In this document: piece by piece, positions 9,319-25,685 of the stretch
Position numbering within the stretch: the first letter of the stretch is position 1
How the letters are laid out: each line of letters opens with the position of its first letter
Assembly (NCBI GenBank): GCA_964383725.1
Contig: CAYLIN010000001.1
Location: 1-30,315, forward strand
DNA length: 30,315 nucleotides
Source of the DNA: an uncultured Azospirillaceae bacterium
Lineage (GTDB): Bacteria > Pseudomonadota > Alphaproteobacteria > RF32 > CAG-239
Reading direction: 5' to 3'
Notes under the pieces: model-generated
What the model saw: only the letters and a program-made list of their open reading frames with translations
Database searches by the model: none
Told to the model about the DNA's origin: nothing
Made by a program: the position numbers and the translations under genes

Positions 9319-9951
9319 ATGCCACGCAGAACCAAAGAAGAAGCCGAGCAAACCAAAGAAGCCGTTTTACAGTCGGCTTTGGATTTGTTTTATGAAAAAG
9401 GATATTCGCGAACAACTTTTGATGAGATCGCCAAACGTATTGGTCTCACAAAAGGTGCCGCTTATTGGCATTTTCGTAATAAAGCTGATTTGTTAGCAGA
9501 ATTAATGAATATCAAATTTAAACAAAAACAAAATTTGGCTAAAATTCAGTCTGAAAAGATTTTAACCGTTGAAGCTCTCAGAAATTCGGTTATTGCAGAT
9601 GCGCAGATTGTTCAAAATGATCCTGATTATTGCAAGTTTTTGTTCTTTATCCTTTATCAGATGGAATGGTCAGAAGCAATTATTCAAAAAATATCAGGGC
9701 AAATTCGTGAAATTAGGGATTTTCCGTTCTTTCAGTTAAAAGAAATATTGACTTTGTTACAAAAAAATGGAGAAATAGCCTCTAATGTTGATATTGATGA
9801 AACCGTTATCATTCTTTTATGTTTGTGGCGCGGTGTTTTAAATGTATATATCAGTAAAACTTATCCGATGGATTTGGTTCGGACTTTAACCAAAAGTTTT
9901 GACCTCATTATGGACGGTATTAAAGTGGAGAAAAAAGAAAAATGCAAGTAG
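9319..9951 (+). CDS. acrR: TetR/AcrR-family transcriptional repressor
   Basis: MPRRTKEEAEQTKEAVLQSALDLFYEKGYSRTTFDEIAKRIGLTKGAAYWHFRNK is an AcrR/TtgR-type HTH; first gene of the efflux operon. Confidence 0.9.
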   Translation: MPRRTKEEAEQTKEAVLQSALDLFYEKGYSRTTFDEIAKRIGLTKGAAYWHFRNKADLLAELMNIKFKQKQNLAKIQSEKILTVEALRNSVIADAQIVQNDPDYCKFLFFILYQMEWSEAIIQKISGQIREIRDFPFFQLKEILTLLQKNGEIASNVDIDETVIILLCLWRGVLNVYISKTYPMDLVRTLTKSFDLIMDGIKVEKKEKCK

Positions 9952-11111
9952 GGACAATTCATAAACGGACTATTATCAAGCAAATCGTCATTTTGGGCGC
10001 TTGTGTTGCTTTCGGCTGGTTTTTGAAAGCCCGCCTCACCCCGCAAATGGGTATGATGGGCGGTATGGGTGGCGGCACACCTTATGTGCTGACACAACAG
10101 CTTTCTACACGCAACATTTCTCCTAAACAAAGCTATATCGGACATGTTGAAGCAATCAAAAGTGTTAATTTAAAGCCGCAAGTGACCGGTTATGTTGAAA
10201 AAGTTTTGTTCCAAGAAGGTTCTTTGGTCAATGAAGGTGATATTTTGTTTGTGATTGAGCAAAAACGCTATATCGCCACGGTTGAATTGCGCCAAGCAGA
10301 ACTTGCCAGCGCTAAAGCCAATTTGGTTCGCACGGAAAGAGATTATCGTCGTCAAGCGTCTTTGAGCAAGCAAAACTATGCTTCTAAAGCTACTCTTGAC
10401 GCCGCAGAAAGCGCTTATTTACAAGCTAAAGCTGCTGTTGCCCAAGCCGAAGCCAGTTTAGAATTGGCAAAAATTGATTTGGATTATACCGAAATTAAAG
10501 CCCCGATTACCGGCTATATCGGAAAAGCAATGGTGACGGAAGGAAATTACGTTAACTCCACAACGCAAGATCTTGCCCGTATTGTTCAAACTGATCCTAT
10601 TCGCGTAGCTTTCTCTGTTTCTGATAAAGATATGCTGAGCTTGCGCCGCCTGTATAAAAACGGCAGCGAATCGTCTCCGATTAAAACTGAATTGGTTTTG
10701 GCTGACGGAACAGTTTTGGTTAATCACCTGAAATCACGTTTTACAGATAATGAAATCAACACTAACACAGCAACAATCGCCGTTTATGCCGAATACAGCA
10801 ATGATCATAATTTGCTTATTCCGGGTAACTATGTCGATATTCGCGTTGGAGAAAAGGAAGATAAAGTTGCTCTTTTAATCCCTCAAGCCGCTATTGCTCA
10901 AGACGAACACGGTAATTATGCTTATATTGTTAATGAAGATGGTATTGCCGAACAGAAACGTCTTGTTTTAGGTGACGTTATCGGTACAGAACAAGTTGTT
11001 GAATCCGGTTTGGAAGCTACTGACAAGGTTATTATTCAAGGGTTACAAAAAGTAACCAATGGACAAAAAGTCAATGCTTCCGAAGTTTTACCGGATGCTA
11101 AGGAGGAATAA
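9942..11111 (+). CDS. RND efflux periplasmic adaptor (MFP, AcrA-like)
   Basis: N-terminal TM anchor, LKPQVTGYVEKVLFQEGSLV lipoyl half, alpha-hairpin, IKAPITGYIG, and QGLQKV at the C-terminus; overlaps the TetR stop. Confidence 0.93.
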   Translation: MQVGTIHKRTIIKQIVILGACVAFGWFLKARLTPQMGMMGGMGGGTPYVLTQQLSTRNISPKQSYIGHVEAIKSVNLKPQVTGYVEKVLFQEGSLVNEGDILFVIEQKRYIATVELRQAELASAKANLVRTERDYRRQASLSKQNYASKATLDAAESAYLQAKAAVAQAEASLELAKIDLDYTEIKAPITGYIGKAMVTEGNYVNSTTQDLARIVQTDPIRVAFSVSDKDMLSLRRLYKNGSESSPIKTELVLADGTVLVNHLKSRFTDNEINTNTATIAVYAEYSNDHNLLIPGNYVDIRVGEKEDKVALLIPQAAIAQDEHGNYAYIVNEDGIAEQKRLVLGDVIGTEQVVESGLEATDKVIIQGLQKVTNGQKVNASEVLPDAKEE

Positions 11112-11114
11112 TTA

Positions 11115-14100
11115 ATGTTTTCACGCATTTTTATTGAACGCCCGCGCTTTGCGATGGTGATTTCCATCGTGTTGACTTTGGCGGGTATTATTTCTGTTTT
11201 TTCTTTGCCGATTTCTCTATATCCGGAAATTACGCCGCCGGAAATTGTGGTTTCAGCAGCTTATCCCGGCGCTAGTGCCGAAGTGGTTGCTAAAACTATC
11301 GGTATTCCGCTGGAAGCTGAAATCAATGGTGTGGAAGACATGTTGTATATGAGTTCTTCCTCTGAAGATTCCAGATATACTTTGACTGTTACGTTTAAGG
11401 TTGGTGTTGATCGCGACATGGCACAAGTTAAAGTCCAAAACCGTATTCAACAAGCTCAATCCAAGTTACCAACCGATGTTACCAGACAAGGTTTGACTGT
11501 TAAAAGCCGTTCTTCAAACATCTTAGGCTTCATCAGTATTATTTCTCCCAACAAAACCTATTCACAGCTGCAATTATCAGACTACGTACAAAACAACATC
11601 AAAGATGCCCTTGGTCGTGTTAGTGGTGTGGGTGAAGTGAATGTTTACTCATCAGCTATGAGTATGCGTGTTTGGTTAAATGCTGATAAAATTACAGCTT
11701 TGAATATTCCTGTATCAGAAATTAAGGCTGCTATTGAAGGACAAAACTATCAACCGTCTTTAGGCAGTATCGGCGCTATGCCGGGTGACGGCACACAGCA
11801 AATGGTTTATACTTTGCAAACACAAGGTCGTATTAACGAGGTTGAAGACTTTAAAAACATCATTATTCGTACAGCTGAACAAGGCGGATTGCTTTACTTG
11901 AAAGACATTGCTGAAGTTAATATCGGCGAGGAAAGTTATCGTGCCACATCAAGCTTTAACTCAGCTCCGAACGTTGCTATTGCCATTAACCAATTGGCCG
12001 GCGCTAATGCGTTAGATGCCATGGATGGTGTCAAAAAAGAGATGGAGCGTTTGGCTCAGCGTTTTCCGGAAGATATTACTTATATTATCGGTTATGACTC
12101 AACCGAATATATTGAAGCTTCTATTGAAGAAGTTGTTTTCACCTTGGTTTTGACATTCTTGCTGGTTATTCTGGTTTGCTACATGTTCCTACAAGATTGG
12201 CGCTCAACTTTGGTGCCTACGCTGACCATTCCGGTTTCAATTTTTGCTACTTTTGCTGTCATGCTCGCCATGGGGTATAGCTTAAACATGTTGACTTTGT
12301 TCGGTTTGGTTTTGGCTATCGGTTTGGTGGTGGATGACGCTATTGTGGTTGTGGAACGTGTTTTGTTCTTGATGGAATCTGAAAACCTAAGCCCGAAAGA
12401 GGCTACTATCAAAGCAATGGAACAAGTTTCAAGCGCGATTATTGCGACAACCTTGGTATTGCTGGCTATTTTTGTACCGGTCGGTTTCTTGGGCGGTATT
12501 ACCGGAAAGATTTATCAGCAATTTGCGATTGCAATTTCAACATCCGTTGCCTTTTCATCATTGAATGCACTGACGTTGTCTCCGGCATTGTGCGCTACTT
12601 TGTTGCGCCCTGTCACGCCGGCTACATCAGGGCCATTGTTCTGGTTCAATAATATTATTGGCAAATCTCGTGATAAATATGCTTCCATCGTCGGTTTTAT
12701 CGGTCGCAAAGTTAGTGTGATTTTCTTGATTATGGTTCTGTTGTTTGCCGGTGTCGGAGCTTTCTTGAATATTAGCCAAACGTCATTTATCCCGTCAGAA
12801 GATCAAGGGGTTATCTTCATGAACATTCAGTTGCCGGAAGGTGCAAGCCGTGTCCGCACACAGGAATTTGTGAATAAGATTTATCCTCTGATTAAAGAAG
12901 AACCCGGTGTCAATAATGTGATGAGCGTTATCGGCGTTAGTATGATTGGCGGAAGCGGTGAAAATACAGCAATGAACATTATCACTTTGCACCCCTGGAA
13001 CAAGCGCGAAGGAGCTGAGTTATACTCAACTAATATTTTAAACCGAATCCGAGCTAAAGTTGTTGGTATGCCTGAAGCAGAAGTCCAATTATTTGAACCC
13101 CCTGCTATTATGGGCTTGGGTATGAGTGGCGGTATGGATTATCGTTTGCAAGCCCTGAATAGTGATGATCCGCAACAGTTGGAAAGAACATTGCGTAACT
13201 TGTTGGGACAAATCAACGCAGATCCGAATGTGATGTATGCCTACACAACATATACAGCACAAACACCAAACTATTATATTACTATCGACAGAGATAAAGC
13301 CGAAGCGATGAAAGTTTCCATCGGCAGCATTTACAGCGTGTTGCAGAATTATCTCGGCTCCAGCTATGTTAACGATGTTAACTTCGGAACACAGGTTAAT
13401 AAGGTTATGATTCAGGCTGATTGGAAATATCGTAAAGATTTGGACAGCGTAAAGAATCTGCATGTTCAAAACCAAAAAGGTGAGATGGTTCCGCTTGATC
13501 CGATGATTTCACTGAAAAAGGTATTAGCTCCGCGTGTTGTCAGCCGTTATAACCAATATCCGAGTGCGTCGATTACGGCGGTTCAAAGTCCGGCATCAAG
13601 TACCGGTCAAGCCATGGGGGCTTTGGAAGAAATTTCAAACAGACTTCCCACAAGTTTTGGTTATGATTGGTCCGGTATGAGCTATCAGGAAAAATCAAGC
13701 AGCGGTCAAATCGGCTATTTGATTATGCTGGCGATGACTTTTGCTTACTTGTTCTTAGTGGCGCAATACGAAAGCTGGTCAACCCCCCTACCCGTGTTGA
13801 CTTCAGTTTCTGTAGCTATGCTCGGAGCTTTGTTCGGTTTGTTCATTACCGGATTGCCGCTTAGTATTTATGCGCAATTAGGTTTGATTTTGTTGGTCGG
13901 TTTAGCTGCTAAAAACGCAATTTTGGTGGTTGAATTCTCTAAAGAAGAACAAGAACGCGGGGCTTCCATCATTAAAGCGGCTGTTGTCGGGACTAAAGAA
14001 CGTTTCCGTGCGGTGCTGATGACGGCCTTCACTTTCATCTTGGGTGTGCTGCCGATGATTGTTGCCACAGGCGCCGGTGCCTCAAGCCGAATCGCTATCG

Positions 14101-14210
14101 GCGTACCGGTGTTTTACGGCATGTTGCTTGGAACGGTGTGCGGTTTGATTGTTATTCCGCTGTTATATATCTTGTTCCAGACACTTCGAGAAAAGACTAA
14201 GAAACAATAA
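11115..14210 (+). CDS. HAE1-family RND efflux permease (AcrB/MexF/BepE-like)
   Basis: 1031 aa; [28 protein letters not shown] (proton-relay DD), AAKNAIL (Lys), RFRAVLMT. Confidence 0.96.
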
Positions 14211-14214
14211 AAGA

Positions 14215-14247
14215 ATAAAATCCTCCGATTTCGGGGGATTTTATTTT
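14215..14247 (+). terminator. Intrinsic terminator of the efflux operon
   Basis: ATAAAATCCTCCGA-TT-TCGGGGGATTTTATTTT hairpin immediately after the stop codon. Confidence 0.8.
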
Positions 14248-14347
14248 GTCAAAATTTATCACAGTACATGAATTAGCAATTGCAAATGCCTGATAAAGTG
14301 TTTATTATAATAGAAAATGCATTTTTTTAATACTTACAGGTTTATAG

Positions 14348-17300
14348 ATGTCTAAACTGAAGCGTAATTTATTCCTTCTGGTCGTGGCTTTGTTGACGGC
14401 AAAAGTTGTTTATGCCGCAGTTGTTCCTATTGTCGACACACCAGCCAGCAGTTCTTATGGTCAAAAATATCTGATGACGCCGCTATCGTCATCATCGAGC
14501 TCAGGAGAAACGACTCCTCGTACGTCGACCTATTCCGGTGTGACTTGCGGCACCATAACGGCAACTACAGAGAATGGCTGTAAAACAACGCTGGGAATCG
14601 ATGATGCGGTAGCAACTCCGTGCGATGGCGGAAAATATACCTGTTCTTGCCCCTCAACATATAATAAATCTTGCACCTCATCCAGTGAAATGGGGGTTGG
14701 GGTTGCTTGCGGCGGCAAATATAAATCCTGTCAAACCATTGGCTCTATTACGTGTAATGAGATTGTTGCAATGCGTACGGGATTACCTCTGGAACAAGTA
14801 GATGTTGAGAAAGATTTTAAATTTGGTTTTGAAACAACGAATTCCTCTAATTGCCAAACATCATCTCCTTTTAATTATACTTTATATAGATGTAAGCTCA
14901 ATGCTTCTGATACTACAGAAGTAAACTTTTGTATGTATCCGATTTGTCAGGAGTTAATTAACAATCCTAATCATCCTTTACGTATTCATGACAAATATCA
15001 TCCTAATGATCCGACGCCTAACGCAGATATGTTACTGCAATATCCGGAAGGCGATCCATTTTCTAGAATTTATTGTTATGATACAACTTCACAGAACTAC
15101 TCCCGTGCTTATTACTGCAATGAAGAATATACAGAAACCCCTGTAGGTGAGTGCGCCTCCAACGAACGGCATGAGATTTGTGAGGTTGAAAAAACACGTA
15201 AGTATGGTGAGTGTACTGATAGTCCATCTACCCTTTGTAGCATTGAGGATACCTCCTTTATTTTAAAAAGAAGACTAAGGAAAGAAGATTTTTATAGTGG
15301 GGGGGTAGACGATTGTCACTTCTCAGCGGAGTTTATGGATGGCTTCAAAAACGGAACATGTGTTTTATTGAATGAAAACGGCAGAATTTTACCATCTGGT
15401 TATTCGCAAACTGATCATTGTCAATGCAATTCTGGTGAGAAAGATGTGCCCCCAGTGTATCCATATACACAAGCGTGTGAAGGTTATCGCATAGAAAGCG
15501 GTTCTCCGTTAGTCGGTTCCGCTGTTGTTCCGGTGGTCAGCAAACTTAATCTGCCAATATCTAATAACAAAGATGTTTTGGATTTTTGTCTGTGGGATGC
15601 TCAATCATCTGTACCATATTACGATGAAAAAGAACCCGATGAGCACGGAACTCTAATTTCGGTGAGCGCCGCATACAATGCCAACACATATACCACCACA
15701 TTTGCGGCAGAAAAGTTAAGATACAAATCTTGTCTTCCTAAGTGTCCGGATAATTTTCAGATTACTTTAGCTTCTGAAGTCGATAAAAGCACGTTTACCT
15801 GCCCGAACGGTTTACCTCCTAACTCTTGTGCGGTTGAAATTTCCGCGACAGATTCCGCGATAACCGGATATGTCAAAATGCTTCACGAAAAATTCAGTAT
15901 GAATATTCCGACTTTTTATGAGGAAGCCCTTTATTGCGGTTGCCCGTTGGATTGGAAAACATCTTGTCCTGCAGGGGAAGCTCTTGCAGGTTCGAAGTGC
16001 AGTTCCGGCGGTACGGACTATTATTCTCATTGCGTTAAAACGTGTGATAATACCTCCCCCAAGCAGTCAACGCCTGTTAAAGAAAGCGGAACAGAAACAA
16101 AATGTTCAACTGTCGAAGGGGGAGAGTTTGTACAAACACACATTCCCAACACAGGTAAATGTTCAGCTAACGGAGATTTTAGCCAAACAGTCAGCTGTGG
16201 TTCCGATAATGCTCAATGTTGTTTAAGTGCAACAGAATGCTACACAGACTTCTTTAAGGTTTCAGAATCTGCCTCGTCTTGTATTCCGATGAATGTGGCA
16301 GATACTTTCCCGTCTTTATGTATTGATCCTTCTGTAGCACTGCAAAAATCTCCTATTGTATCGGTACAATGTTCTTGTCCGGATAACTATAAGTCTTGTT
16401 CGGATGCCTCATCTTCCGGCATCGGAGCTCGTTGTCCTTTTGAAGGCAGTGATAAATATGCAGAATGCAGTGTTGGCTGTCCGACAGACAAAACGGAATA
16501 TTTGGTTACCAATATAGAGGATTGTAAAATTGGTTCAGAAAACGGAAAAATAAGTGAATGTTATACAGATGTTTCCGATCTTTCGACAAAGAAATATATA
16601 TGTAAGTGTCCGGATTCATTTAATCCCAGAGACGGGCATATGTGGAATTTTAACATATTAGGTCACTGTATCAGATTGACAATGGAATCGGAATATCTCT
16701 ATTCTGATAATAATAAACTGGCTGATTTAACCAGATGTAAAAACAACACAAAATGCACACAATGTTTGAAAGAGTTTGTTGGATATGGAACATCTTGTGA
16801 TTTTGATGCCCGTAATGCTTCCGGCACAATTGAGCAAAGTTTGATAAAACATCAGAGTATCATCATTTCTTGTAAATTCCTTGAAGAAAACTTTGATAAT
16901 AAGTTACATATCGTCGATAATTTTAACGACTGTGCAGCCTTAGGTTTGGGAACACCGACTGAGGATAATTATCGTTGTCATGATCCGGTTCAGAACAAAA
17001 GACGTTCTATTTGTCGTTGTCCGGGAGAGTTTAGAACAAAATCAGAATTTTGCAACTCCTCACAAGCCAGACCGGCCGGTATCAGTGAAGCTGATTGTTT
17101 AAGAGATTATAATCCAATCGGAGAAGTTTGCGCCTTGGATACATCTCCTCGTTATTGGACGGGATACCAAGATGTTTTAACAAATGTAAAAGCTGATGTT
17201 CCTCGGTTTAAAACATTTGTTAACAGCTGTCCGGATTCAACCATCCGTCCGGCATATGATTCCAAAGAAAAATGTATGGTTGGCGATGATCCTACAGCTG

Positions 17301-20300
17301 ATTTTAATAAAGATTATGAACACCGAGCTCACCAATGCAGCGTCGAATCAGAAGACGGAAGCGGAGAAAGATTTTATTGTGACTGCCCCTCTTCTTTCAT
17401 CACAGAATGTAAAAATCCGAATGAAATTCTCGGCGGCTTGTCTTGCGAATATGACAGCTTGGATTATAATGACAGAAAATATCAAAAATGTCTGCCGCAA
17501 TGTGAAGAAACGGCTGAAACACCGGTTGTTATATCTCCGGAAGACTGCCCGACTGTTGATGGTGAAGCCGCAGATACATCATATAAATGCTTTAACAAAA
17601 AAGGCGACCCGATTGAACGTACGGCTTGTCGTTGTCCCAAAAACGGCTGGCAAACATTGGAAGAGTATTGCGGTAATGACGGCGTAACCTATAAAGAGCG
17701 AAAATATACTAAAGAAGAATGCTTGAAATCATTTATCGGTGTTGGAACTGTATGTACGTTTGATGGTTATGGTGTTCGAAAATATCAAAGATTTGAAATT
17801 ACTTGCCCGACTGATCGTCCGCTTTTCTACACGTCAGACGAATGTAGTCAGGCAACAATCCCCGGAACTGTCGACTATACTTGTTATGAAAAAGATAACT
17901 TGCAACAACAACGCGTTGTTTGTAAATGTCCGTCCTCGTGGGTTGATGTTGAGGGCAAAAAAGTCAGTGCCGGCTCTCAGATTTGCTCGACGACAGAAGA
18001 GGCCAGCGGAACAACCTGTAACTTTGACAGTTTAACATCTCTCAAATATGAAAAATGTTATCCTAAATGCCAATCTGTTCCTACAAACGGACAAAATCTC
18101 ACTTATATGGATGAAGAAGAGCCGACTATTCTTGATTGTACAGAAAAACTTGGTGATGGTGCAACTTTTGGAGTAGACAGCAATGGAAGCAAGTGCAGTA
18201 AAAATCATGAACTGTATACACCTTGCTATTGCGGACCTGATTTCATCAATACATGTCAAAATGACAATCAACGTCCGGCAGAAAATTCTTTAGCTTGTAC
18301 TATCGGTGGCACAACCTATTATAAAACTTGTGAAAATAATGCTTGTCGTGAACCGAGTTCATCTATTGCCATAATAGAAATGGCCAGTGGAAATACAAAT
18401 GCAGATGCCGCTTGCAAAAGTCGTTTCGGAAGCGGGGCAACAGGTCGAAACTGCGGAATTTCTCAAGCAGAGTGTTCGTGTGATCCGCGTACTTTTGTTG
18501 AAACCTGTGATTATCCTCTGGATAAGCCGGATAAAAGTAAGGTTGAATGGTGTCGTTTAGGCGAAGGTTCAACTCAGATGGAAAACGGAACAGATCACTT
18601 CAAACTTGGAGAATGTAAGGTCAGAACTTTATTGGCTAAATGTGGGAAACATATTTTATTGGACAGCGGTCGACAAGACTCGACACCGATTATTTATGTG
18701 ACAGAAACAGAGAGCCAATGTAAAACGCGCTTTGGAAGCGGTGCAAAAGCTCAATTATGCGAATATGAGGATAATACAGACAAACGTGCATTTAACTGCT
18801 ATTTCAGTCTTTCTGATTTTCCGATAACAGAAGATACATGTCCGGTTCGCCATGTATTGAGCAGTGAATATATTACTTATAACAACACAAAATATTATAA
18901 GAGTTGTGATTGTCATTCCGCTTATAAACACCACAAATACAATTGTTCAGGAATGTTAAGCGGCGGTGCATGTACTCAAAAACTTACCAAAGAAATGATT
19001 GATGCTGATGTTACATTGAAAGAAGCCGGTATTTCTGTCGGCACAGAATTGTCACAATATCCGTATTGTCAATGCACTTCCGACTATAGTCAGGTTTGTG
19101 ATGGGGAACGTTATATTGGGGTCGGTAAACCTTGTAACGGTAAGTACACGGCTTGTGAATGTAAAAAAGATGAATTGCCGGAAAATTGGGCTGACAACTA
19201 TTATGGCTGCCCGGGTGGTAAAAAACCAACCGGCGTTACCAAGCCTAACGGATGTGGCGGAAAATATTATCAATGTTCGGTCACGGAATGTACATGGCAA
19301 CATACAGAAAAATGTTTATCTCCGTTGATTGGTGTAGATCCTTGTCAGGATAATCAAGGCAATATCGGCGGATATAAAAGCTGTCGTTGTCCGGATGGAT
19401 ATAAAAAATGTTCTGACGGCATTGTCGGAAAAGGTGAACCTTGCATTTTGAACGGTGATTACTATTACACCTCATGTGAAGAAACAACAACGTGCAACCA
19501 TGGCGAAAGCAAAACATGTCAGGAAGAGTTTTTAGTTGGCGTCAACCCATGTACGCGCAACAATGTTACCTATTTTGAATATTGTAAATGTTCCGCCGGT
19601 TTTGACAAACTTTGCGATGATGGCGAAGTCGGGGTTGGCTTGGCATGCAAACTCAATGGTAAGGAATATTACCAATCCTGCAGCAAGCCGTCTTCTACCT
19701 GTACTTCTGAGCACACGGAAACTTGCGATACATTCCAAGAAAAATATGATCCCTGTGTCAGCAGTGACAATAAGTTGTTGTATAAATGTAAATGCCCCTC
19801 AAATTGGAGCACCTGTCGTGATACAGGAAGTGCCGATGGAGCTGACAGATGTACAGCTACGGATGGAACCATTTATTATAACCAATGTGCTGTTAGCGGA
19901 CAATGCTCGCCTCTACAAGAAAAGACTTATTCCGTTTGTACATCCTCACAAAAAGGAAGTGGCGGAAGCTGTGTTTCAACGGAAAGCAATATTACCAAAT
20001 ATGCTGTCTGTGAAGAAACCTCCTCTTGTCGTTTGAACGGTTATAAATACACCTGTTTAGGATTTGATCAGGAAGCTTTAGGGACAGATTCTTGCGTGGA
20101 TGAAAATGGAAACAGACTTTATAAAGAATGTAAATGTCCGGCTAAATGGATTACTTGTCCCGGTAAAAACAATAAAAAAGGACGTTCTTGTACCGGATTA
20201 AGTGAATCCGGCGCTTCTATGGAGCCTGTTTATGAAAGTTGTACCTGTGACGCAACATTATATAAGTATACTTGCCAAATTGAAGAGTTTGGCTCAAACC

Positions 20301-22141
20301 TGAATACAGGTGTTTTGCCAGCGGTCACAAAATCATGCACTCCGGCAACTTATGACAGCTCGGTCGAAGGAAATCGTAAAGAAGGTGAAACTTTATATCA
20401 ATCTTGTGCCTGCAAAGAGTCATTTACTCATACATGCTCTGGTAATGGTCATATTGTAGAAAATGCTCAGCCTTATTGTCAAAAAGTGCCAAATGGCAGC
20501 AAGTTGTATGAATATTGCGCTTGTTCTGATGATTTCATTACCCAATGCAAGGCTGACACATCCAATCCGGGATTGACAGCACCACGCTCAGAAATCAAAA
20601 TATGTACACCATTAAATCCGTCTGCTGCCGGATATGAGGGCATTACGGGGTCTTTGTATTCATCTTGTGAATGCGGTCAAGCTTATCGCTTTGAATGTGA
20701 AAAGAATAATGCTTATGGTGATGACAAAGACAAATGTGAAGATCCGGTGACGCATAAGACATATTATAGCGCCTGCAACTGTGATCAAACATTATATCCG
20801 GAGAAGTGCGACGGCAACGGTGTTATACCGATAGATGCCGAAGATAAGTGCGTCAAACAATATAATGAAGGAACGGCCTCACGGAGTACCACCTATTACA
20901 GTGGCTGTAAATGTGAAGATAAATACAAATACAGCTGTACAGATCCATCAGACGGACAAGGGATTTATTATACGCCGGAAACATATGCATTGAACACGAT
21001 TAGTGCGAACAATATCTGCTCTTATAAATATATGGGTGAAACCTTTAAGCAATATACTCACTGTCCGTGTCCGAGTTCATACACAGACTGTGCCGCAGAC
21101 GGAAAGGTAGCTGCAGAAAACAGTAAGCTCTGCATGGAAGTTTCTGCGGACGGAACAGTTACGGAAAAATACAGCGCTTGCAGCTGTGATGTATCCGCCG
21201 AAGCAGAAAAATTGCGTAACTGGGGTTATGTTGCCTCATCCGCTTCAAGCGTTACGGATCCGATTTTTGCTCAAGAGGTTGAAGAAATGTGTGGGCATAA
21301 ACAAAACTTTATTGCCAAACGAGGTATCTGTACCCCTTTATACTTCAAGTGTGGTATTAACGATACAAGCTATAGATACACAGAAGCTTCATGCGCCGCT
21401 GAAACTTGGGGAACCAGTGCAAACAAATGGACAACAAAACCGCAGGAACTAACCGGCAGCCAGTGTAAAAACTTTGAAACAGAAGCCTTAAGAGGGATGA
21501 CGGTCGGCAACAGTGCACAAGATGATATGACAAATGAAAAATCTTATTATCAACAAAGCACTGTCGGCAACTTATGCACACAATGCGACTGCGCTGATAT
21601 TTATAAATATACGGAAAGTTTGTGTGATGAAATCAGTAGAGATTCATCTAAAGGCGGCTCTGAATTTAATAATAAATGTTTTATTATTGGTACGGCTCAA
21701 CCTTTGAAATACATGACGAATTGTGATGATCTGAAATATTTACAACAACCAAGTAACGAGGATATAACCTACTGGAATAATCCATTTTCAGCCTCAACAA
21801 AAATTTTGACGGTGCAAGGTAACTCTTGTGTCAACAGAAACCAAGAGACAAAATGGGAATATTGCGACTGCAATGCAGATTCTTTGCGTTATATCAGGAC
21901 ACACATGGACAAAGATGAAGGTGACATGAAATATTATTTTTGTTTTGAGCCGGATTTAAACAAATCAACGCCTACAGATATTGCATTATATGACGCTGTT
22001 TGTACGCTAGATGGTCATTTGGGGAAAGCTAGGTTTCCAGGTGAAACATGTACGGAAGGCGCCCAAAACTGTCACCATTGCACTTACTCATCTGCAGGTG
22101 GCGGCTTTTTCTATAGCCGAGCATTTACCAAAAGATACTAA
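14348..22141 (+). CDS. Giant (2597 aa) exported cysteine-rich repeat protein, function unknown
   Basis: Uninterrupted 7.8-kb ORF; Sec signal MSKLKRNLFLLVVALLTAKVVYA; Ser/Thr linker; about 30 recurring CxC..C..C..YxxC modules. Confidence 0.93.
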   Translation: MSKLKRNLFLLVVALLTAKVVYAAVVPIVDTPASSSYGQKYLMTPLSSSSSSGETTPRTSTYSGVTCGTITATTENGCKTTLGIDDAVATPCDGGKYTCSCPSTYNKSCTSSSEMGVGVACGGKYKSCQTIGSITCNEIVAMRTGLPLEQVDVEKDFKFGFETTNSSNCQTSSPFNYTLYRCKLNASDTTEVNFCMYPICQELINNPNHPLRIHDKYHPNDPTPNADMLLQYPEGDPFSRIYCYDTTSQNYSRAYYCNEEYTETPVGECASNERHEICEVEKTRKYGECTDSPSTLCSIEDTSFILKRRLRKEDFYSGGVDDCHFSAEFMDGFKNGTCVLLNENGRILPSGYSQTDHCQCNSGEKDVPPVYPYTQACEGYRIESGSPLVGSAVVPVVSKLNLPISNNKDVLDFCLWDAQSSVPYYDEKEPDEHGTLISVSAAYNANTYTTTFAAEKLRYKSCLPKCPDNFQITLASEVDKSTFTCPNGLPPNSCAVEISATDSAITGYVKMLHEKFSMNIPTFYEEALYCGCPLDWKTSCPAGEALAGSKCSSGGTDYYSHCVKTCDNTSPKQSTPVKESGTETKCSTVEGGEFVQTHIPNTGKCSANGDFSQTVSCGSDNAQCCLSATECYTDFFKVSESASSCIPMNVADTFPSLCIDPSVALQKSPIVSVQCSCPDNYKSCSDASSSGIGARCPFEGSDKYAECSVGCPTDKTEYLVTNIEDCKIGSENGKISECYTDVSDLSTKKYICKCPDSFNPRDGHMWNFNILGHCIRLTMESEYLYSDNNKLADLTRCKNNTKCTQCLKEFVGYGTSCDFDARNASGTIEQSLIKHQSIIISCKFLEENFDNKLHIVDNFNDCAALGLGTPTEDNYRCHDPVQNKRRSICRCPGEFRTKSEFCNSSQARPAGISEADCLRDYNPIGEVCALDTSPRYWTGYQDVLTNVKADVPRFKTFVNSCPDSTIRPAYDSKEKCMVGDDPTADFNKDYEHRAHQCSVESEDGSGERFYCDCPSSFITECKNPNEILGGLSCEYDSLDYNDRKYQKCLPQCEETAETPVVISPEDCPTVDGEAADTSYKCFNKKGDPIERTACRCPKNGWQTLEEYCGNDGVTYKERKYTKEECLKSFIGVGTVCTFDGYGVRKYQRFEITCPTDRPLFYTSDECSQATIPGTVDYTCYEKDNLQQQRVVCKCPSSWVDVEGKKVSAGSQICSTTEEASGTTCNFDSLTSLKYEKCYPKCQSVPTNGQNLTYMDEEEPTILDCTEKLGDGATFGVDSNGSKCSKNHELYTPCYCGPDFINTCQNDNQRPAENSLACTIGGTTYYKTCENNACREPSSSIAIIEMASGNTNADAACKSRFGSGATGRNCGISQAECSCDPRTFVETCDYPLDKPDKSKVEWCRLGEGSTQMENGTDHFKLGECKVRTLLAKCGKHILLDSGRQDSTPIIYVTETESQCKTRFGSGAKAQLCEYEDNTDKRAFNCYFSLSDFPITEDTCPVRHVLSSEYITYNNTKYYKSCDCHSAYKHHKYNCSGMLSGGACTQKLTKEMIDADVTLKEAGISVGTELSQYPYCQCTSDYSQVCDGERYIGVGKPCNGKYTACECKKDELPENWADNYYGCPGGKKPTGVTKPNGCGGKYYQCSVTECTWQHTEKCLSPLIGVDPCQDNQGNIGGYKSCRCPDGYKKCSDGIVGKGEPCILNGDYYYTSCEETTTCNHGESKTCQEEFLVGVNPCTRNNVTYFEYCKCSAGFDKLCDDGEVGVGLACKLNGKEYYQSCSKPSSTCTSEHTETCDTFQEKYDPCVSSDNKLLYKCKCPSNWSTCRDTGSADGADRCTATDGTIYYNQCAVSGQCSPLQEKTYSVCTSSQKGSGGSCVSTESNITKYAVCEETSSCRLNGYKYTCLGFDQEALGTDSCVDENGNRLYKECKCPAKWITCPGKNNKKGRSCTGLSESGASMEPVYESCTCDATLYKYTCQIEEFGSNLNTGVLPAVTKSCTPATYDSSVEGNRKEGETLYQSCACKESFTHTCSGNGHIVENAQPYCQKVPNGSKLYEYCACSDDFITQCKADTSNPGLTAPRSEIKICTPLNPSAAGYEGITGSLYSSCECGQAYRFECEKNNAYGDDKDKCEDPVTHKTYYSACNCDQTLYPEKCDGNGVIPIDAEDKCVKQYNEGTASRSTTYYSGCKCEDKYKYSCTDPSDGQGIYYTPETYALNTISANNICSYKYMGETFKQYTHCPCPSSYTDCAADGKVAAENSKLCMEVSADGTVTEKYSACSCDVSAEAEKLRNWGYVASSASSVTDPIFAQEVEEMCGHKQNFIAKRGICTPLYFKCGINDTSYRYTEASCAAETWGTSANKWTTKPQELTGSQCKNFETEALRGMTVGNSAQDDMTNEKSYYQQSTVGNLCTQCDCADIYKYTESLCDEISRDSSKGGSEFNNKCFIIGTAQPLKYMTNCDDLKYLQQPSNEDITYWNNPFSASTKILTVQGNSCVNRNQETKWEYCDCNADSLRYIRTHMDKDEGDMKYYFCFEPDLNKSTPTDIALYDAVCTLDGHLGKARFPGETCTEGAQNCHHCTYSSAGGGFFYSRAFTKRY
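19067..21187 (+). repeat. Tandem array of about 18 degenerate Cys modules (roughly 30-55 aa each) within the giant protein
   Basis: Examples: CQCTSDYSQVCDGERYIGVGKPCNGKYTAC; CRCPDGYKKCSDGIVGKGEPCILNGDYYYTSC; CKCSAGFDKLCDDGEVGVGLACKLNGKEYYQSC; CPCPSSYTDCAADGKVAAENSKLCMEVSADGTVTEKYSAC. Confidence 0.85.
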
Positions 22142-22146
22142 AAGCA

Positions 22147-22170
22147 ACCGCCGGTAAACACACCGGCGGT
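22147..22170. terminator. GC-rich hairpin directly after the giant gene stop; possible terminator or 3' stabiliser
   Basis: ACCGCCGGT-aaacac-ACCGGCGGT, a perfect 9-bp stem with only a weak U-tract. Confidence 0.6.
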
Positions 22171-22411
22171 ATGTTAGCGTCATTTTACCGAAGGAAATGC
22201 ATGAAAGGTGTCATGACATCATCATGACACCTTTCTCATTCTTTTCTGATTTTATCAGCGATGATACATTCTCAAATGTAACTATGCCATTAAAATGCAG
22301 ATTGAATGTGTGTGCACTCATAATGGCAAGTTACCATCATCGTGAACAATTAAAATTTAGCTATAGATTTTTATCTTTCCAGAGAGCCTAGCCGAATTAT
22401 CATATCTGCAT

Positions 22412-22454: not shown

Positions 22455-23117
22455 CTAGAAAGTTAAAATACTAACCCTGAAGGTCAGCGAAAAGGTGAGA
22501 GCCACCTTCTCTGTTTGGAGTTTCCATCCCCCGATTTGGGAGTTGAAATCTACTCCGTCGATGTCAATGCCACCATCGGGAACAAGGCGATTTGCCTCAA
22601 AGGGGCGATATACGCACCCTACACCACCGATGAGCGAACATCTATTGGACATTCGCCACTCCAACTTGAAGTTGGCGAAGCCCTGAGGAAGAACCTTTGC
22701 ATCAAGAAAATCTTGATGCAAATTAATCTTCTCATCTTCAGAGGCCGCATTGTAGCGATAGCCCCTATATTGTTTGCCCACACCCACTCCGAGTTCGAGG
22801 GTGGGCTGCACACGCCACGTCAGCGGACAGAGTTTTCTGCCAACGCCGACACCGGCAATCAGCCCTTTTCGAGCATATCCGCCTTCCACAAAGAATGACC
22901 ATCCTTTGTGATAGCGAGAAACGCGGAGTTGGCTGCCCCAGTCAAGTTTGCCGGCCCCTGTGATGGGATCTTTATCCAGCGTTACTTGGGGGGTGACGTC
23001 GATCAGCAGGCAATTGTTGCCAGTGCCTACATTATATACGACGTTCTTATTTTGAGCGGTTGCTGCGATAGTAGTGAACACCATCATGATAATAGCAGCA
23101 AAAAAGTTTTTGGTCAT
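22455..23117 (-). CDS. Probable small outer-membrane beta-barrel protein, Bacteroidota-style
   Basis: Signal peptide ending ATA-Q; alternating amphipathic strands (WSFFVEGGY, LELGVGVG, ANFKLEW, ALTFSLTFRV); C-terminal Phe. Confidence 0.75.
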   Translation of the reverse strand: MTKNFFAAIIMMVFTTIAATAQNKNVVYNVGTGNNCLLIDVTPQVTLDKDPITGAGKLDWGSQLRVSRYHKGWSFFVEGGYARKGLIAGVGVGRKLCPLTWRVQPTLELGVGVGKQYRGYRYNAASEDEKINLHQDFLDAKVLPQGFANFKLEWRMSNRCSLIGGVGCVYRPFEANRLVPDGGIDIDGVDFNSQIGGWKLQTEKVALTFSLTFRVSILTF

Positions 23118-23256
23118 TGTAGTTAACGGGGGGTTAGAAAGCCTAATGGCGGTGCGAACACGTTCGCGATGCCATTAGCTTTGAGTTTCGAAAAAAAAGA
23201 GAAATTATAATCCGGCTTTTGAAAGCGCGCCGGATAAGGGCACTAAAGGACTTTGC

Positions 23257-25410
23257 TTAAAACCACATTCCGCCCCAGAAGCCATTAGCGCTCTTGGTAA
23301 TCTGACCACGGAAAGGTTCCGGGAGATTGTTAACAGAAATAGTGTGGATACCGAAGCTCTTGTTCTGACCTTTGATGGTTACATAGCAAAAGCCGTTCTT
23401 ATAGCTGTCGTCCTTTTTGGAGAAATCACCACCCAGGTAGGCAACCTCGCTGTTATCAGCTGTGCTGTTGTTAACACTGATGTAACGGTTGGGGTTGTTC
23501 TGAAGGAAGTTGTCGAGTTCCTGAGTCGAGACATATGCCTGACGGAAAGGAACTTCGGCGTTTCCATCCTGGAAAACTGCAATCATTTTCTGATTGTGGT
23601 CGTTGATATTCCGGAAAACGAGACCGTGGAAAGTGTTGTACTCGCCGGTCTTTTCGCTCCAAGAATAAGTTGTGGCGAAATGCTGAGCGTAAGCCTCGTC
23701 CACTTCCCATCCGGGGATGGTGTGTTCGGGCTTTTTAACCTTTACAACAAATTCCTGAGTTGCACTTGCGCGCATGTCTTCTGCGGTTGCAGTATAGACA
23801 ACAGAATAGTGGAAAAGGTCATAAACAGTATTCTCTTCTACGGTGCCGGCTACGGGAGCAGCGCCGTTGAGAGTGGTTTCAGGATCAGCAATTTCATACT
23901 TCTTGCCTGCGTATTCAACATAAAGGTTGCGGTTCATAGAAACCACAACATTGTTCTTTACAGTGCTGTTATAAGTATGAACAAAGGTGGCAGACATTTT
24001 GTCACCCTTGAGGTTATTGCCTTGGTAGTTGCCGCTCTTTACCCAGCTGCCAGCCTCATGGTTGGTACGCGTGAGCTGGTTGTTCTCTGCCTCCAGAGTG
24101 ATGAGGTTTTCAGCGCGAACGCTGAATTCCCTGTTACCACTGAAGGTCAGAAGCACTTTATCAGCGTCGATAGAGTGTTCTTCGATCAGCTTACCGTTGA
24201 TTGCACCGTTTTTCTCGGTGTAGTCAAGATAAATACGAACGACTGCGTCTTTCTCCTTTTCTACACGACCCTGGAAGGCCTGAGTAGCAGAGGCAACAAC
24301 AACATCCCATGACATGGCATAGGTGATGGTGGTGTTGATGTAGTTGAAATCAGCATCTTCTGATGCAGCCTCTTCTCTGTTTACTTCGGCAAATACCGGA
24401 GTGGGAACAGAATAAGTCTGGCTAATGCCATGATATTCAACAACAACCTCTTTCGGATAGGTTGCGGTCAGAGTTACCTCACCCTGTTCATAGCGGAAGA
24501 TGTTAGCATTCTGATTGGCAACGCCTACGCTATTGAGAGTGTTGTAGCTGATGAGATTACCAGCTTTCAGAGAAGCCTCGAAAGGCTTTCTGATTTCTTC
24601 GCGGTTGTTGAGCTCGGGGTGCAAGGTGTGACCCTCTACACCGTCGAATACAACTTCGTTACCCTCCTGATGAAGGTTTTCTATAGCATAGAAAACTTCA
24701 TCTTTCTCTGAAGTGGTGAACACAACAGAGAAATCATAGATAACATCGTCACCCTCGCTCATAGAAGCGGTGAAATGTGCGGGTACGTTGTAGGTGTTGT
24801 CGGAACCTGCAACTTTTTCAGCATCGCCGAAGCTGATGCTGATATTGCGCACGTAGTTGGAGCAGAGGCTGCCGTTGAACACGGTACCTTCAGCATTCCA
24901 ACCTTCCACCTGCTGATCAACAGTAAAGATCCATTGCTGGGTCTTGTTGGCATAGCTGATGAACGAGGGCTCAACGCTCTTCGAACTGTTCACCAACACC
25001 TCGCGGTTTGCAATGCTGACTTTGTTTCCGTCAACATTGAAGGTTTTGCCGGCGATCTCGGAAACAGCGTCTCCGGAAAGGGCACCGGTAAGACCAGTGA
25101 GAGTGAAGCTGTGCTCCACATTGAAAGACTTAATCTCGTTCTTCTCGGTGTCATCACTGTAAATCAGCGAAAACTCCTTGTTGAACGAATAAGCCTTAGT
25201 GATGGTGGTAACACTATTCACACTGGAAGCGTTGGTTTCAAGGGAGCTGTTCAGCTCACACTCATAACCGAGAACGTCTTCCAAAGAGCTCTCCACGGGA
25301 GTGGAGGGATCAAATGCTACTTCTCCTTTAGTGTAGAGGTAAGGTTCGTCATTGCATGAGCTCATTACGAAAGCCGCGATGATAGCGGCAAAGATTTTGT
25401 TTGTTTTCAT
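23257..25410 (-). CDS. Bacteroidota-style lipoprotein, 717 aa, with internal beta-rich repeats; function unknown
   Basis: ATG 25410: MKTNKIFAAIIAAFVMSSC-NDE lipobox, A-rich leader without SD, strongly biased codon usage. Confidence 0.85.
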   Translation of the reverse strand: MKTNKIFAAIIAAFVMSSCNDEPYLYTKGEVAFDPSTPVESSLEDVLGYECELNSSLETNASSVNSVTTITKAYSFNKEFSLIYSDDTEKNEIKSFNVEHSFTLTGLTGALSGDAVSEIAGKTFNVDGNKVSIANREVLVNSSKSVEPSFISYANKTQQWIFTVDQQVEGWNAEGTVFNGSLCSNYVRNISISFGDAEKVAGSDNTYNVPAHFTASMSEGDDVIYDFSVVFTTSEKDEVFYAIENLHQEGNEVVFDGVEGHTLHPELNNREEIRKPFEASLKAGNLISYNTLNSVGVANQNANIFRYEQGEVTLTATYPKEVVVEYHGISQTYSVPTPVFAEVNREEAASEDADFNYINTTITYAMSWDVVVASATQAFQGRVEKEKDAVVRIYLDYTEKNGAINGKLIEEHSIDADKVLLTFSGNREFSVRAENLITLEAENNQLTRTNHEAGSWVKSGNYQGNNLKGDKMSATFVHTYNSTVKNNVVVSMNRNLYVEYAGKKYEIADPETTLNGAAPVAGTVEENTVYDLFHYSVVYTATAEDMRASATQEFVVKVKKPEHTIPGWEVDEAYAQHFATTYSWSEKTGEYNTFHGLVFRNINDHNQKMIAVFQDGNAEVPFRQAYVSTQELDNFLQNNPNRYISVNNSTADNSEVAYLGGDFSKKDDSYKNGFCYVTIKGQNKSFGIHTISVNNLPEPFRGQITKSANGFWGGMWF

Positions 25411-25685
25411 TGCTTTATTGTTTTTTTTATTATTATTACAAATGAATATTCCACTCTTCAATACTGTTTTTTCAACAATAATTGTTTCTCATTTTTTCGA
25501 TAGATTCTCTCTAACACCTCAACGTTATGAGCAATGTCCAAGAAAACTTCAGTGAAAATAATTGGAATAAGAATGGAATAAAAAAAGATTTTACACTTAT
25601 AAATTTACCACAGTCTAACCAAAAATACAATAGTTATTTGTAAAACGAATCGAAAGAAATGCCAGAAATAAGATGATATGTTTTT

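Follow-up and report, generated by a model that had tools for sequence, protein, structure and literature searches.

Positions 14,348 to 22,141 on the forward strand of the DNA stretch analysed here (30,315 nucleotides, hereafter the window) hold a real gene for an exported protein of an uncultured gut alphaproteobacterium, and the giant cysteine-module proteins to which its product belongs are an undescribed family. Judged from cysteine spacing, the protein carries about 50 units of four cysteines each, and the searches described below support the view that this module belongs to no named domain family or solved structure. The most likely overall explanation, and in our view a probable one, is a surface fibre or adhesin-like stalk made of tandem disulfide-stapled units.

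The gene and its exported product

The initial annotation had read an exported protein of 2,597 residues with a Sec signal, and both readings hold: the forward-strand frame is free of internal stops over 14,348–22,141, and its start encodes a basic n-region, a hydrophobic core, and the cleavage site V-Y-A|A. This arrangement is common to all full-length orthologues, and the signal peptide is the sole hydrophobic segment of the protein. Cysteines make up 8.0% of the residues, i.e., one in 12.5; the annotated richness is thus real, while the estimate of about one in ten was too high. The first cysteine is residue 67, and only three CxxC motifs occur in the 2,597 residues. Tandem Repeats Finder (TRF) detected no DNA tandem repeats, and identity between modules amounts to only 32%; an assembly artefact can therefore be dismissed. 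The features of the locus are as follows.

14,221–14,237, forward: terminator-like hairpin and T-run after the RND pump gene (consensus scan and sequence)
14,280–14,308, forward: promoter-like site TTGCAA-17-TATTAT upstream of the giant gene (consensus match only)
14,348–22,141, forward: giant open reading frame, 2,597 aa with 208 Cys; mature protein ~283 kDa, pI ~4.9
14,348–14,416, forward: Sec-type signal peptide, residues 1–23, cleavage after V-Y-A (read from sequence)
14,417–14,440, forward: conserved mature N-terminal motif A-V-V-P-I-V-D-T
14,441–14,545, forward: Ser/Thr-rich, Cys-free linker, residues 32–66 (read from sequence)
14,546–17,347, forward: hypervariable N-terminal arm, residues 67–1000, with irregular Cys segments
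17,348–19,066, forward: moderately conserved eight-Cys double units, residues 1001–1573 (identity 36–58%)
19,067–20,518, forward: conserved core, residues 1574–2057 (65% mean column identity, alignment A1)
19,073–21,181, forward: unbroken run of 22 four-Cys units, residues 1576–2278 (Cys positions and spacing, HMM matches)
19,154–19,390, forward: family signature hot spot, residues ~1603–1681, and the next unit
21,182–22,141, forward: hypervariable C-terminal region, residues 2279–2597, and stop codon
22,147–22,235, no strand assigned: two terminator-like hairpins after the stop, 22,147–22,170 and 22,203–22,235 (consensus scan)

The gene accounts for ~0.5% of a 1.5 Mb genome and encodes the lineage's largest protein. 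It is single-copy, and no paralogues were found in its own genome, so the paralog family envisaged earlier is not supported. The motif that opens the mature protein takes the family form [AK]-[VI]-[VT]-[PSN]-I-x-[DE]-[TY] in nearly all giants, and the short module proteins carry AK-I-T-P-I-x-x-Y. A role as a genome-wide sorting signal was rejected, as the giant protein is the only open reading frame with the motif in the genome.

Genomic context

The giant gene has a constant position after an RND efflux operon (TetR-MFP-RND). Its neighbours in the window are lexA and lysS; in some relatives it adjoins flgI, flgJ, and flgK, a flagellar neighbourhood that is not conserved. The terminator-like hairpin between pump and giant gene suggests separate transcription, i.e., that the two are not co-transcribed. 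Functional coupling to the operon was rejected: the conserved adjacency is matched by conserved synteny over a wider region, the interval between pump and giant gene contains terminator- and promoter-like sites, and the operon is retained where the giant gene is missing. We therefore treat the adjacency as synteny only. A downstream lipoprotein and small barrel were likewise rejected as export partners, since neither the closest relative nor the surroundings of other orthologues contain this cassette.

Order-level sampling covered 28 genus genomes, and the giant gene went undetected in 13 of them (9 of 24 in an initial draw). The gene is accessory, being cleanly present or absent at a single locus.

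The four-cysteine module

The unit spans ~30–50 residues and follows the consensus C-x-C-P-x2-[YFW]-x3-C-x5-G-V-G-x2-C-x-G-K-Y-x2-C, with linkers of 1 residue (CxC) or 3–6 residues joining one unit to the next. About 30 copies of a larger module had been proposed; the order of magnitude was right, while the true unit is half the described size. An HMM seeded from the short relatives finds 25 modules in the giant protein. The repeat itself, as first described, stands up well against 2,000 composition-preserving shuffles of the protein: the exact cysteine pattern occurs 16 times versus 0.4 ± 0.7 (maximum 4) in the shuffles, CxC 28 times versus 16.6 ± 3.8, and Y-x-x-C 43 times versus 12.1 ± 3.2.

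AlphaFold gave two confident models, one of the conserved core (pLDDT 81.4, all-beta hairpins) and one of a short fragment (pLDDT 83.8), and both were taken into the structure comparisons. All five models of the short fragment scored 80.7–83.8; in their all-beta hairpins, C3 and C4 lie on the paired strands.

Cysteine pairing

Of 30 orthologues, 28 have an even number of cysteines in the mature protein, with totals running from 178 to 246 (binomial p 8.7e-7, uncorrected for relatedness; as the orthologues are kin, the statistic overstates independence). Many of these counts, such as 182, 194, 198, 202, 214, and 218, are not multiples of four, which favours pairs over Cys4 metal sites. In three orthologues C1681 (C1) and C1699 (C3) are both lost while C2 and C4 are kept, and in four orthologues C1108 and C1125 are co-lost. 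The one clean C1+C3 co-loss and the even parity support a pairing of C1 with C3 and C2 with C4. A tabulation of paired losses over HMM-aligned modules is confined to modules retaining every cysteine, the only ones that the HMM recovers. Cysteine columns stay nearly invariant at ~40% overall identity in the orthologue alignment; together with even parity and paired loss, this lends indirect support to the disulfide-stapled beads on a string that the initial annotation had pictured.

Conservation along the protein

Conservation is concentrated in the middle of the chain. The N-terminal arm shares 11–21% identity with 31 orthologues (gaps 18–50%) and holds isolated canonical modules at residues 99, 530, and 675. 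The C-terminal region shares 8–19% (gaps 28–66%) and remains Cys-module-like. In the double units between residues 1001 and 1573, cysteine columns are invariant (23 of 23) at most positions. The highest values are found around the family signature, L-P-x-N-W-x-D-x-Y-x-G-C-P-x-G-x2-P-T-G-V-x-K-x2-G-C-G-x-K-x-Y-Q-C followed by the next unit, where identity reaches 77% over residues 1601–1700; it is retained in divergent giants of 1,692–1,998 aa. We regard this aromatic-rich central signature as the leading candidate for binding or docking.

Novelty and distribution of the family

That the module belongs to no named family is supported by Pfam, NCBIfam, PDB sequence, and structure comparisons alike. 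Scanning the whole protein against Pfam and NCBIfam at E ≤ 1 returned nothing but one chance Pfam row (FSIP2, E 0.12, 10.7 bits versus a cut-off of 27), with no Pfam family at E ≤ 0.1. Single-sequence and profile searches of PDB sequences gave no match, three independent structure comparisons of the two confident models matched no known fold, and Atlas feature searches of both protein ends had no usable match. We found no paper on the giant Cys-module family in the literature; one preprint deals with fungal Cys-rich repeats, which, going by its abstract and a text search, have no relation to the giant protein. The family can be defined by a signal peptide, the motif [AK]-[VI]-[VT]-x-I-x-[DE]-[TY], module arrays, and a central L-P-x-N-W...P-T-G...G-C-G-x-K signature; the giant protein has all of these, as do ~30 orthologues.

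Searched exhaustively with HMMER, 1.84 billion representatives yielded 49 clusters, the few of them with a named source being hypothetical proteins of Alphaproteobacteria MAGs, and a word-index search gave 22 orthologue matches. All giants measure 1,560–3,014 aa with 7.5–9.5% Cys. The expected lineage restriction is borne out by this distribution, which supports confinement of the giant family to one family of uncultured gut Alphaproteobacteria with small genomes (~1.5 Mb). Short relatives bear tidy arrays of the same module, and no conserved neighbours of these short proteins were found. Two of them also match Lcl_C/DUF1566 (PF07603), namely P0045 with 44.6 bits (above the 34.9-bit cut-off) and P0043 with 31.0 bits (below it).

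Export and oxidative folding

Pfam and NCBIfam scans and a hydrophobicity analysis of the giant protein found no anchor or lipobox, no adhesive or TPS domain, no autotransporter barrel, and no RTX repeat. No means of crossing the outer membrane was found either. Of 26 genus genomes, 25 have a secretin-based system. As for oxidative folding, exported DsbA-like proteins occur in all 26 of these genomes and a DsbD-like protein is encoded in the window's own genome, whereas neither DsbB nor VKOR was found in any of the 26 (23 of them >90% complete). The dsb expansion for which the initial annotation suggested looking was not found.

Proposed architecture and alternative explanations

In the model that we favour, Sec would export a ~283 kDa protein made almost wholly of the ~50 four-Cys units. 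Each unit would form a beta-hairpin with C3 on the first strand (x-G-V-G-x2-C3) and C4 on the second (G-K-Y-x2-C4), and an N-terminal arm bearing C1 and C2 (C1-P-x2-Y-x3-C2) would be stapled across this hairpin by C1–C3 and C2–C4 disulfides. With such short linkers between units, the chain should form a long, stiff, and protease-resistant rod. Two hypervariable arms would flank the conserved aromatic-rich centre, which may bind or dock. The short relatives P0043 and P0045, which fuse the same module with the adhesin-type Lcl_C domain, provide the link to surface proteins. Hypervariable arms around a conserved centre and the accessory status of the gene fit an exposed protein, and the DsbA-like, DsbD-like, and secretin components would suit oxidative folding and export; against the model stand the missing anchor, adhesive domain, and outer-membrane passage, and the missing DsbB and VKOR in a reducing habitat. 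The gene, its composition, the module, its conservation and distribution, and the lack of known relatives are shown directly, while the disulfide pairing (from indirect evidence), the rod shape, the surface location, and the adhesive role, with any host attachment, are inferred. In a bolder version, which we put forward only tentatively, the module would be a novel hairpin fold stapled by disulfides, and the fibres made from it could be longer than 100 nm (a length by analogy). Their makers would be strictly gut-associated Alphaproteobacteria with small genomes and with DsbA but lacking DsbB and VKOR, implying an undescribed drive for the formation of ~104 disulfides per molecule in an anoxic habitat, and the centre would be a new ligand or partner site between fast-evolving arms.

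The same protein could instead work inside the envelope, as a Sec-exported, DsbA-folded scaffold kept between the membranes, e.g., near the flagellar basal body or cell wall. Such a scaffold agrees with a protein in which a Sec signal is the only export feature recognised, without an anchor or a means of crossing the outer membrane, and with a gene that lies beside flgI, flgJ, and flgK in some relatives. Structural housekeeping scaffolds, however, are usually not accessory, and the gene was undetected in 13 of 28 genus genomes; its flagellar neighbourhood gives way to lexA and lysS in this window, its arms are hypervariable, as in exposed proteins, and its short relatives are fused to an adhesin-type domain. 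Hence, we regard a periplasmic scaffold as unlikely. Quite improbable is an envelope coat cross-linked between molecules, like the chlamydial cysteine-rich outer-membrane complex, which the initial annotation had also raised. Its appeal lies in the very high cysteine content and in the several other Cys-rich exported proteins encoded in the same genome, but the even parity and the paired gain and loss of cysteines within modules leave no obvious free cysteine for cross-links, as the cysteines are apparently consumed in intramolecular pairs, and no OmcB-family match was found in Pfam.

Cysteines that bind Zn or Fe would turn the protein into a metal-stabilised or metal-storing array for an anoxic habitat without DsbB. 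Four cysteines per unit, a reducing gut, and a genus lacking DsbB and VKOR would all suit this idea; on the other hand, the protein is exported in a genus where DsbA-like proteins are universal, orthologue counts are often not multiples of four, C1 and C3 are lost as a pair with C2 and C4 kept, and the spacing (with only three CxxC) is unlike known Zn-ribbon or knuckle motifs, making a metal array very improbable. We give the least credence to a polymorphic toxin or contact-dependent effector, i.e., a conserved delivery stalk with a variable C-terminal toxin domain. The ~300 C-terminal residues are indeed hypervariable, but they are still Cys-module-like, the N-terminal arm is equally variable, no immunity-like small open reading frame follows the giant gene here or in relatives, and Pfam and NCBIfam detected no toxin, pre-toxin, Rhs, CdiA, or TPS domain.

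Comparison with known systems

Fibrillar adhesins consist of a long stalk of tandem domains with an adhesive domain and an anchor (Monzon, Lafita and Bateman 2021, PMC8286594). The giant protein is similarly very long, exported, built of tandem small domains, and variable between species, and its short relatives pair the same repeat with adhesin-type Lcl_C. It differs in that its repeat is a 30–50-residue two-disulfide hairpin instead of an Ig-like or beta-sandwich domain and that its most conserved part is central rather than terminal. None of the catalogued stalk families (PMC8286594) occurs in it, its tandem repeats being an uncatalogued module. Pfam, NCBIfam, and Atlas searches of both ends revealed no recognisable adhesive domain (Lcl_C being found only in the short relatives), and no cell-surface anchor was found, be it a second hydrophobic segment, a lipobox Cys, or a Pfam anchor family. 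The Legionella collagen-like adhesin Lcl is related only through the Lcl_C matches of the two short module proteins; the giant protein is without this domain, and the Lcl stalk is collagen-like and not made of Cys modules. RTX adhesins secreted by type I systems differ from the giant protein with its Sec signal, and two-partner secretion differs in its gene neighbours, here the RND efflux operon and lexA/lysS or, in relatives, flagellar genes; the Pfam scan revealed no autotransporter C-terminal barrel, TPS domain, or RTX repeats.

Similar in design are the TNFR cysteine-rich domains, EGF-like domains, laminin-type EGF arrays, and furin-like repeats, small all-beta hairpins with 1-3/2-4 disulfides and short linkers that form elongated rods, as proposed here. 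The top Foldseek rows (DR5, TNFR1, CD40, Pfs25, and Argos) were insignificant, there was no TNFR cysteine-rich domain match in sequence or fold, and the AFDB look-alikes were EGF arrays with TM ≤ 0.1. The EGF six-Cys and laminin-type EGF eight-Cys models gave no Pfam match at E ≤ 1, the unit having four cysteines and its own consensus. Among bacterial proteins, the Myxococcales Cys-rich repeat (as in TraA) and chlamydial OmcB, the examples given by the initial annotation, are also exported with many structural cysteines, but differ in cysteine spacing and lineage; no NCBIfam family, including the Myxococcales-type repeat model, matched at E ≤ 1. Moreover, OmcB relies on intermolecular cross-links, whereas the cysteines of the giant protein are apparently paired internally (even parity in 28/30). 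Giardia variant-specific surface proteins (VSPs) and the Entamoeba Gal/GalNAc lectin heavy chain (among the weak Foldseek rows) resemble it in their gut habitat, in a surface design that is rich in cysteine and resists proteases, and in their strong sequence variability. VSPs are built on CXXC motifs, unlike the giant protein with its three CxxC and no Pfam VSP match. The giant protein may resemble these gut-protist coats in role.

Significance

Long rods of disulfide-laddered modules typify the extracellular proteins of eukaryotes and are, to our knowledge, rare in bacteria; the bacterial lineage studied here makes its largest protein out of such a unit, apparently as an independent development. 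If confirmed, the module would add a new small domain family, probably with a new fold, to the bacterial stalk domains, and it could serve as a compact protease-resistant scaffold for engineering. It also poses a sharp question, namely how 104 disulfides form when there is no DsbB or VKOR to reoxidise DsbA. Finally, it would offer a handle on how widespread uncultured gut Alphaproteobacteria meet their surroundings.

Sequence and composition of the giant protein

The giant gene reads as a single open frame without internal stops and encodes 2,597 residues. Its N-terminus is a signal peptide, running from basic residues through a hydrophobic core to V-Y-A/A. No second hydrophobic segment of membrane-helix grade is present in any 19-residue window, and since the first cysteine is only residue 67, there is no lipobox. 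Cysteines number 208 (8.0%). The exact cysteine pattern proposed in the initial annotation holds up well, with 16 matches against 0.4 +/- 0.7 (maximum 4) in 2,000 composition-preserving shuffles of the protein; CxC (28 observed, 16.6 expected) and Y-x-x-C (43 observed, 12.1 expected) are likewise more frequent than in the shuffles. Spacing, however, defines a smaller unit than the one first described, so that the repeat stands and its boundaries do not. Cutting at every CxC gives pieces with 4, 8, or 12 cysteines, and the unit is a four-cysteine one, C1-x(6-8)-C2-x(10-26)-C3-x(10-22)-C4, joined to its neighbors by linkers of one residue (yielding CxC) or three to six residues.

Across residues 1576-2278, 22 such units follow one another in a register that is never broken, and by cysteine count the whole protein holds about 50. 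The consensus, taken from very tidy copies in short relatives, is C-x-C-P-x2-[YFW]-x3-C-x5-G-V-G-x2-C-x-G-K-Y-x2-C-x-C. An HMM seeded with short proteins only scores up to 37 bits on modules of the giant protein and, after iteration, finds 25 of them. As TRF detects no DNA tandem repeat in the gene and the modules are just 32% identical to each other (20% without cysteines), the array is old and not an assembly artefact.

Proposed disulfide pairing and predicted fold

The cysteine columns are mostly invariant in 23 of 23 orthologues despite roughly 40% overall identity. Counted after removal of the signal peptide, cysteines are even in number in 28 of 30 orthologues (range 178 to 246; binomial p 8.7e-7, a generous value given that orthologues are related), and of the two exceptions, one is a sequence labeled "partial". 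The counts are often not divisible by four, which fits pairs rather than Cys4 metal sites, and we give very little credence to a metal-binding array. As to which cysteines pair, C1681 and C1699 of a canonical unit are jointly lost in three orthologues that retain C1688 and C1710, which points to C1-C3 and hence, by elimination, to C2-C4. C1108 and C1125, from an irregular unit, are jointly lost in four orthologues. DSSP assignments mapped onto the sequence place C3 on the first strand of each predicted hairpin and C4 where the second strand ends, with C1 and C2 on the arm preceding the hairpin. From these sequence patterns we infer a C1-C3/C2-C4 topology.

AlphaFold2 predicts all-beta hairpins both for residues 1574-2057 (pLDDT 81.4, pTM 0.68) and for residues 1672-1816 (pLDDT 83.8, five models spanning 80.7-83.8). 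Good matches in the AlphaFold DB are unnamed proteins only (A0A316SZU5, probability 1.0, 21-22% identity), the other rows being EGF-type arrays with TM <= 0.1. That the module belongs to no named family, as originally stated, is borne out by sequence searches: Pfam returned a single chance row (10.7 bits), NCBIfam nothing at E <= 1, and the PDB no match to either the protein or a 32-sequence profile. In design the protein resembles eukaryotic disulfide-ladder rods, but tests for membership of their families were negative. Similarly, it may work like a fibrillar adhesin but falls outside the domain-based definition of that family (PMC8286594).

Sequence conservation by region

Identity to 31 orthologues varies strongly by residue range.

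Identity of the giant protein to 31 orthologues
Residues 1-100: 38%, includes the signal peptide and the N-terminal motif
Residues 100-1000: 11-21%, many gaps
Residues 1000-1500: 36-46%
Residues 1500-2000: 51-77%, peak of 77% at 1601-1700
Residues 2100-2200: 26%, beginning of the fall toward the C terminus
Last 100 residues: 8%

The peak is an aromatic-rich, non-canonical unit pair, L-P-x-N-W-x-D-x-Y-x-G-C-P-x-G-x2-P-T-G-V-x-K-x2-G-C-G-x-K-x-Y-Q-C, whose signature is retained even in divergent giants. Directly after the signal peptide, all giants and several short proteins carry [AK]-[VI]-[VT]-x-I-x-[DE]-[TY], and a linker rich in Ser, Thr, and Gly comes next. No other ORF of the genome has this motif.

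Relatives and distribution

A word-indexed search of 5.8 billion proteins gave 22 homologues, all of 1,841-2,678 aa, with 36-47% identity and no Pfam domain. Exhaustive HMMER with a profile of the core (residues 1574-2057) matched just 49 clusters among 1.84 billion representatives at E <= 1e-3, namely about 20 full-length giants, a few divergent ones of 1,064-1,998 aa, and short proteins of 365-934 aa. The few members with a named source are labeled "hypothetical protein, Alphaproteobacteria bacterium", all from MAGs.

Of 24 other genomes sampled in the genus, 12 have a full-length orthologue and three more have module proteins; none of 16 genomes from other families of the class has either. 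In an order-wide sample of 121 genomes from 19 genera, 15 of 28 own-genus genomes and a single genome from a second genus carry the central signature; five more genera gave weak, module-only matches in small proteins. The genome studied here, a 1.39 Mb MAG that is 73% complete, has one copy. A related contig has a pair of giant paralogues of 2,542 and 2,112 aa (L003:1998-9626 (-) and L003:10001-16339 (+)), head to head and adjoining the same RND operon, which indicates duplication at the locus.

Genomic locus

The locus comprises the following features.

9319-14210 (+): TetR-MFP-RND efflux operon
14348-22141 (+): giant gene
22455-25461 (-): cassette encoding a lipoprotein and a small barrel-like protein, GC 0.45-0.48 versus about 0.40 around

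The upstream arrangement recurs, with the orientation kept, in five other genomes, the RND protein being 73-95% conserved across the genus. The operon always adjoins the giant-gene locus and persists unaltered where the giant gene is absent. In those genomes, flagellar genes directly abut the pump gene, which marks the giant gene as an accessory element inserted at one constant position. The stretch between the pump gene and the giant gene contains a terminator-like hairpin as well as a promoter-like site, and hairpins lie 3' of the giant gene's stop codon; the giant gene probably stands alone as its own transcription unit.

The cassette lipoprotein (734 aa) has a Bacteroidota-style lipobox, ...M-S-S-C followed by N-D-E, and its companion (220 aa) a terminal F; neither matches Pfam. 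In the closest relative the cassette is missing and lexA sits right at the end of the giant gene, which suggests insertion, transfer, or chimeric assembly. We rejected the cassette as a giant-gene partner and regard it as unrelated.

G005, a genus member without the giant gene, encodes at a contig end, a few kb from the locus, a fragment of >461 aa with 12.8% cysteine and weak module matches (L021:7392-8774 (-)). It may represent another Cys-rich family in the neighborhood.

Proposed function

We consider it rather probable that the giant protein is a surface or extracellular fibre, which would be stiff, protease-resistant, and exposed. Consistent with this are a repeat that would be extended and stapled by disulfides, the variability of the arms, the gene's accessory nature, the short relatives that pair the same module with an Lcl_C adhesin-type domain, and the several further Cys-rich exported proteins encoded in the genome. 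The same protein acting as a scaffold within the periplasm is an unlikely reading, and its serving as a cross-linked coat or a toxin carrier strikes us as very improbable. For a folded rod, a possible export route is the cluster of the genome's sole secretin.

C13:6429-14838 (locus L016): type IVb-pilus/T2SS-like cluster with TcpQ-like, secretin, two unknown, T2SSE ATPase, T2SSF, and PilS-like pilin genes

It lies directly downstream of a gene for a Cys-rich LRR protein. Candidacy is weakened by the presence of a secretin (one each in 25 of 26 genus genomes) also where the giant gene is missing.

Cys-rich secretome and oxidative folding

Other exported ORFs of the genome contain 5-11% cysteine and do not match the module HMM.

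C5:5394-8021 (-), Cys-rich exported ORF
C3:2-1918 (-), Cys-rich exported ORF
C3:15839-17746 (-), Cys-rich exported ORF
C79:3776-6322 (-), Cys-rich exported ORF
C13:229-2484 (+), Cys-rich exported ORF
C4:4470-6248 (+), Cys-rich exported ORF

Their common N-terminal motif, ..N-P-T-P-I-E-L....Y-Q-L-A-K-V-T-W-L-P-D-Y, differs from that of the giant protein. One has C-x2-C-x2-G-x-Y repeats resembling the ephrin-receptor/GCC2_GCC3 type, and another is half leucine-rich repeat. The genome as a whole seems to be characterized by a Cys-rich secretome.

The proposed check for a dsb expansion was negative. DsbA-like proteins occur in all 26 genus genomes, mostly in two copies, and the genome studied here has a DsbD-like protein. 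As for the reoxidation of DsbA, neither DsbB (PF02600) nor VKOR (PF07884) turned up in any of the 26, of which 23 exceed 90% completeness, even though very Cys-rich proteins are exported in this lineage.
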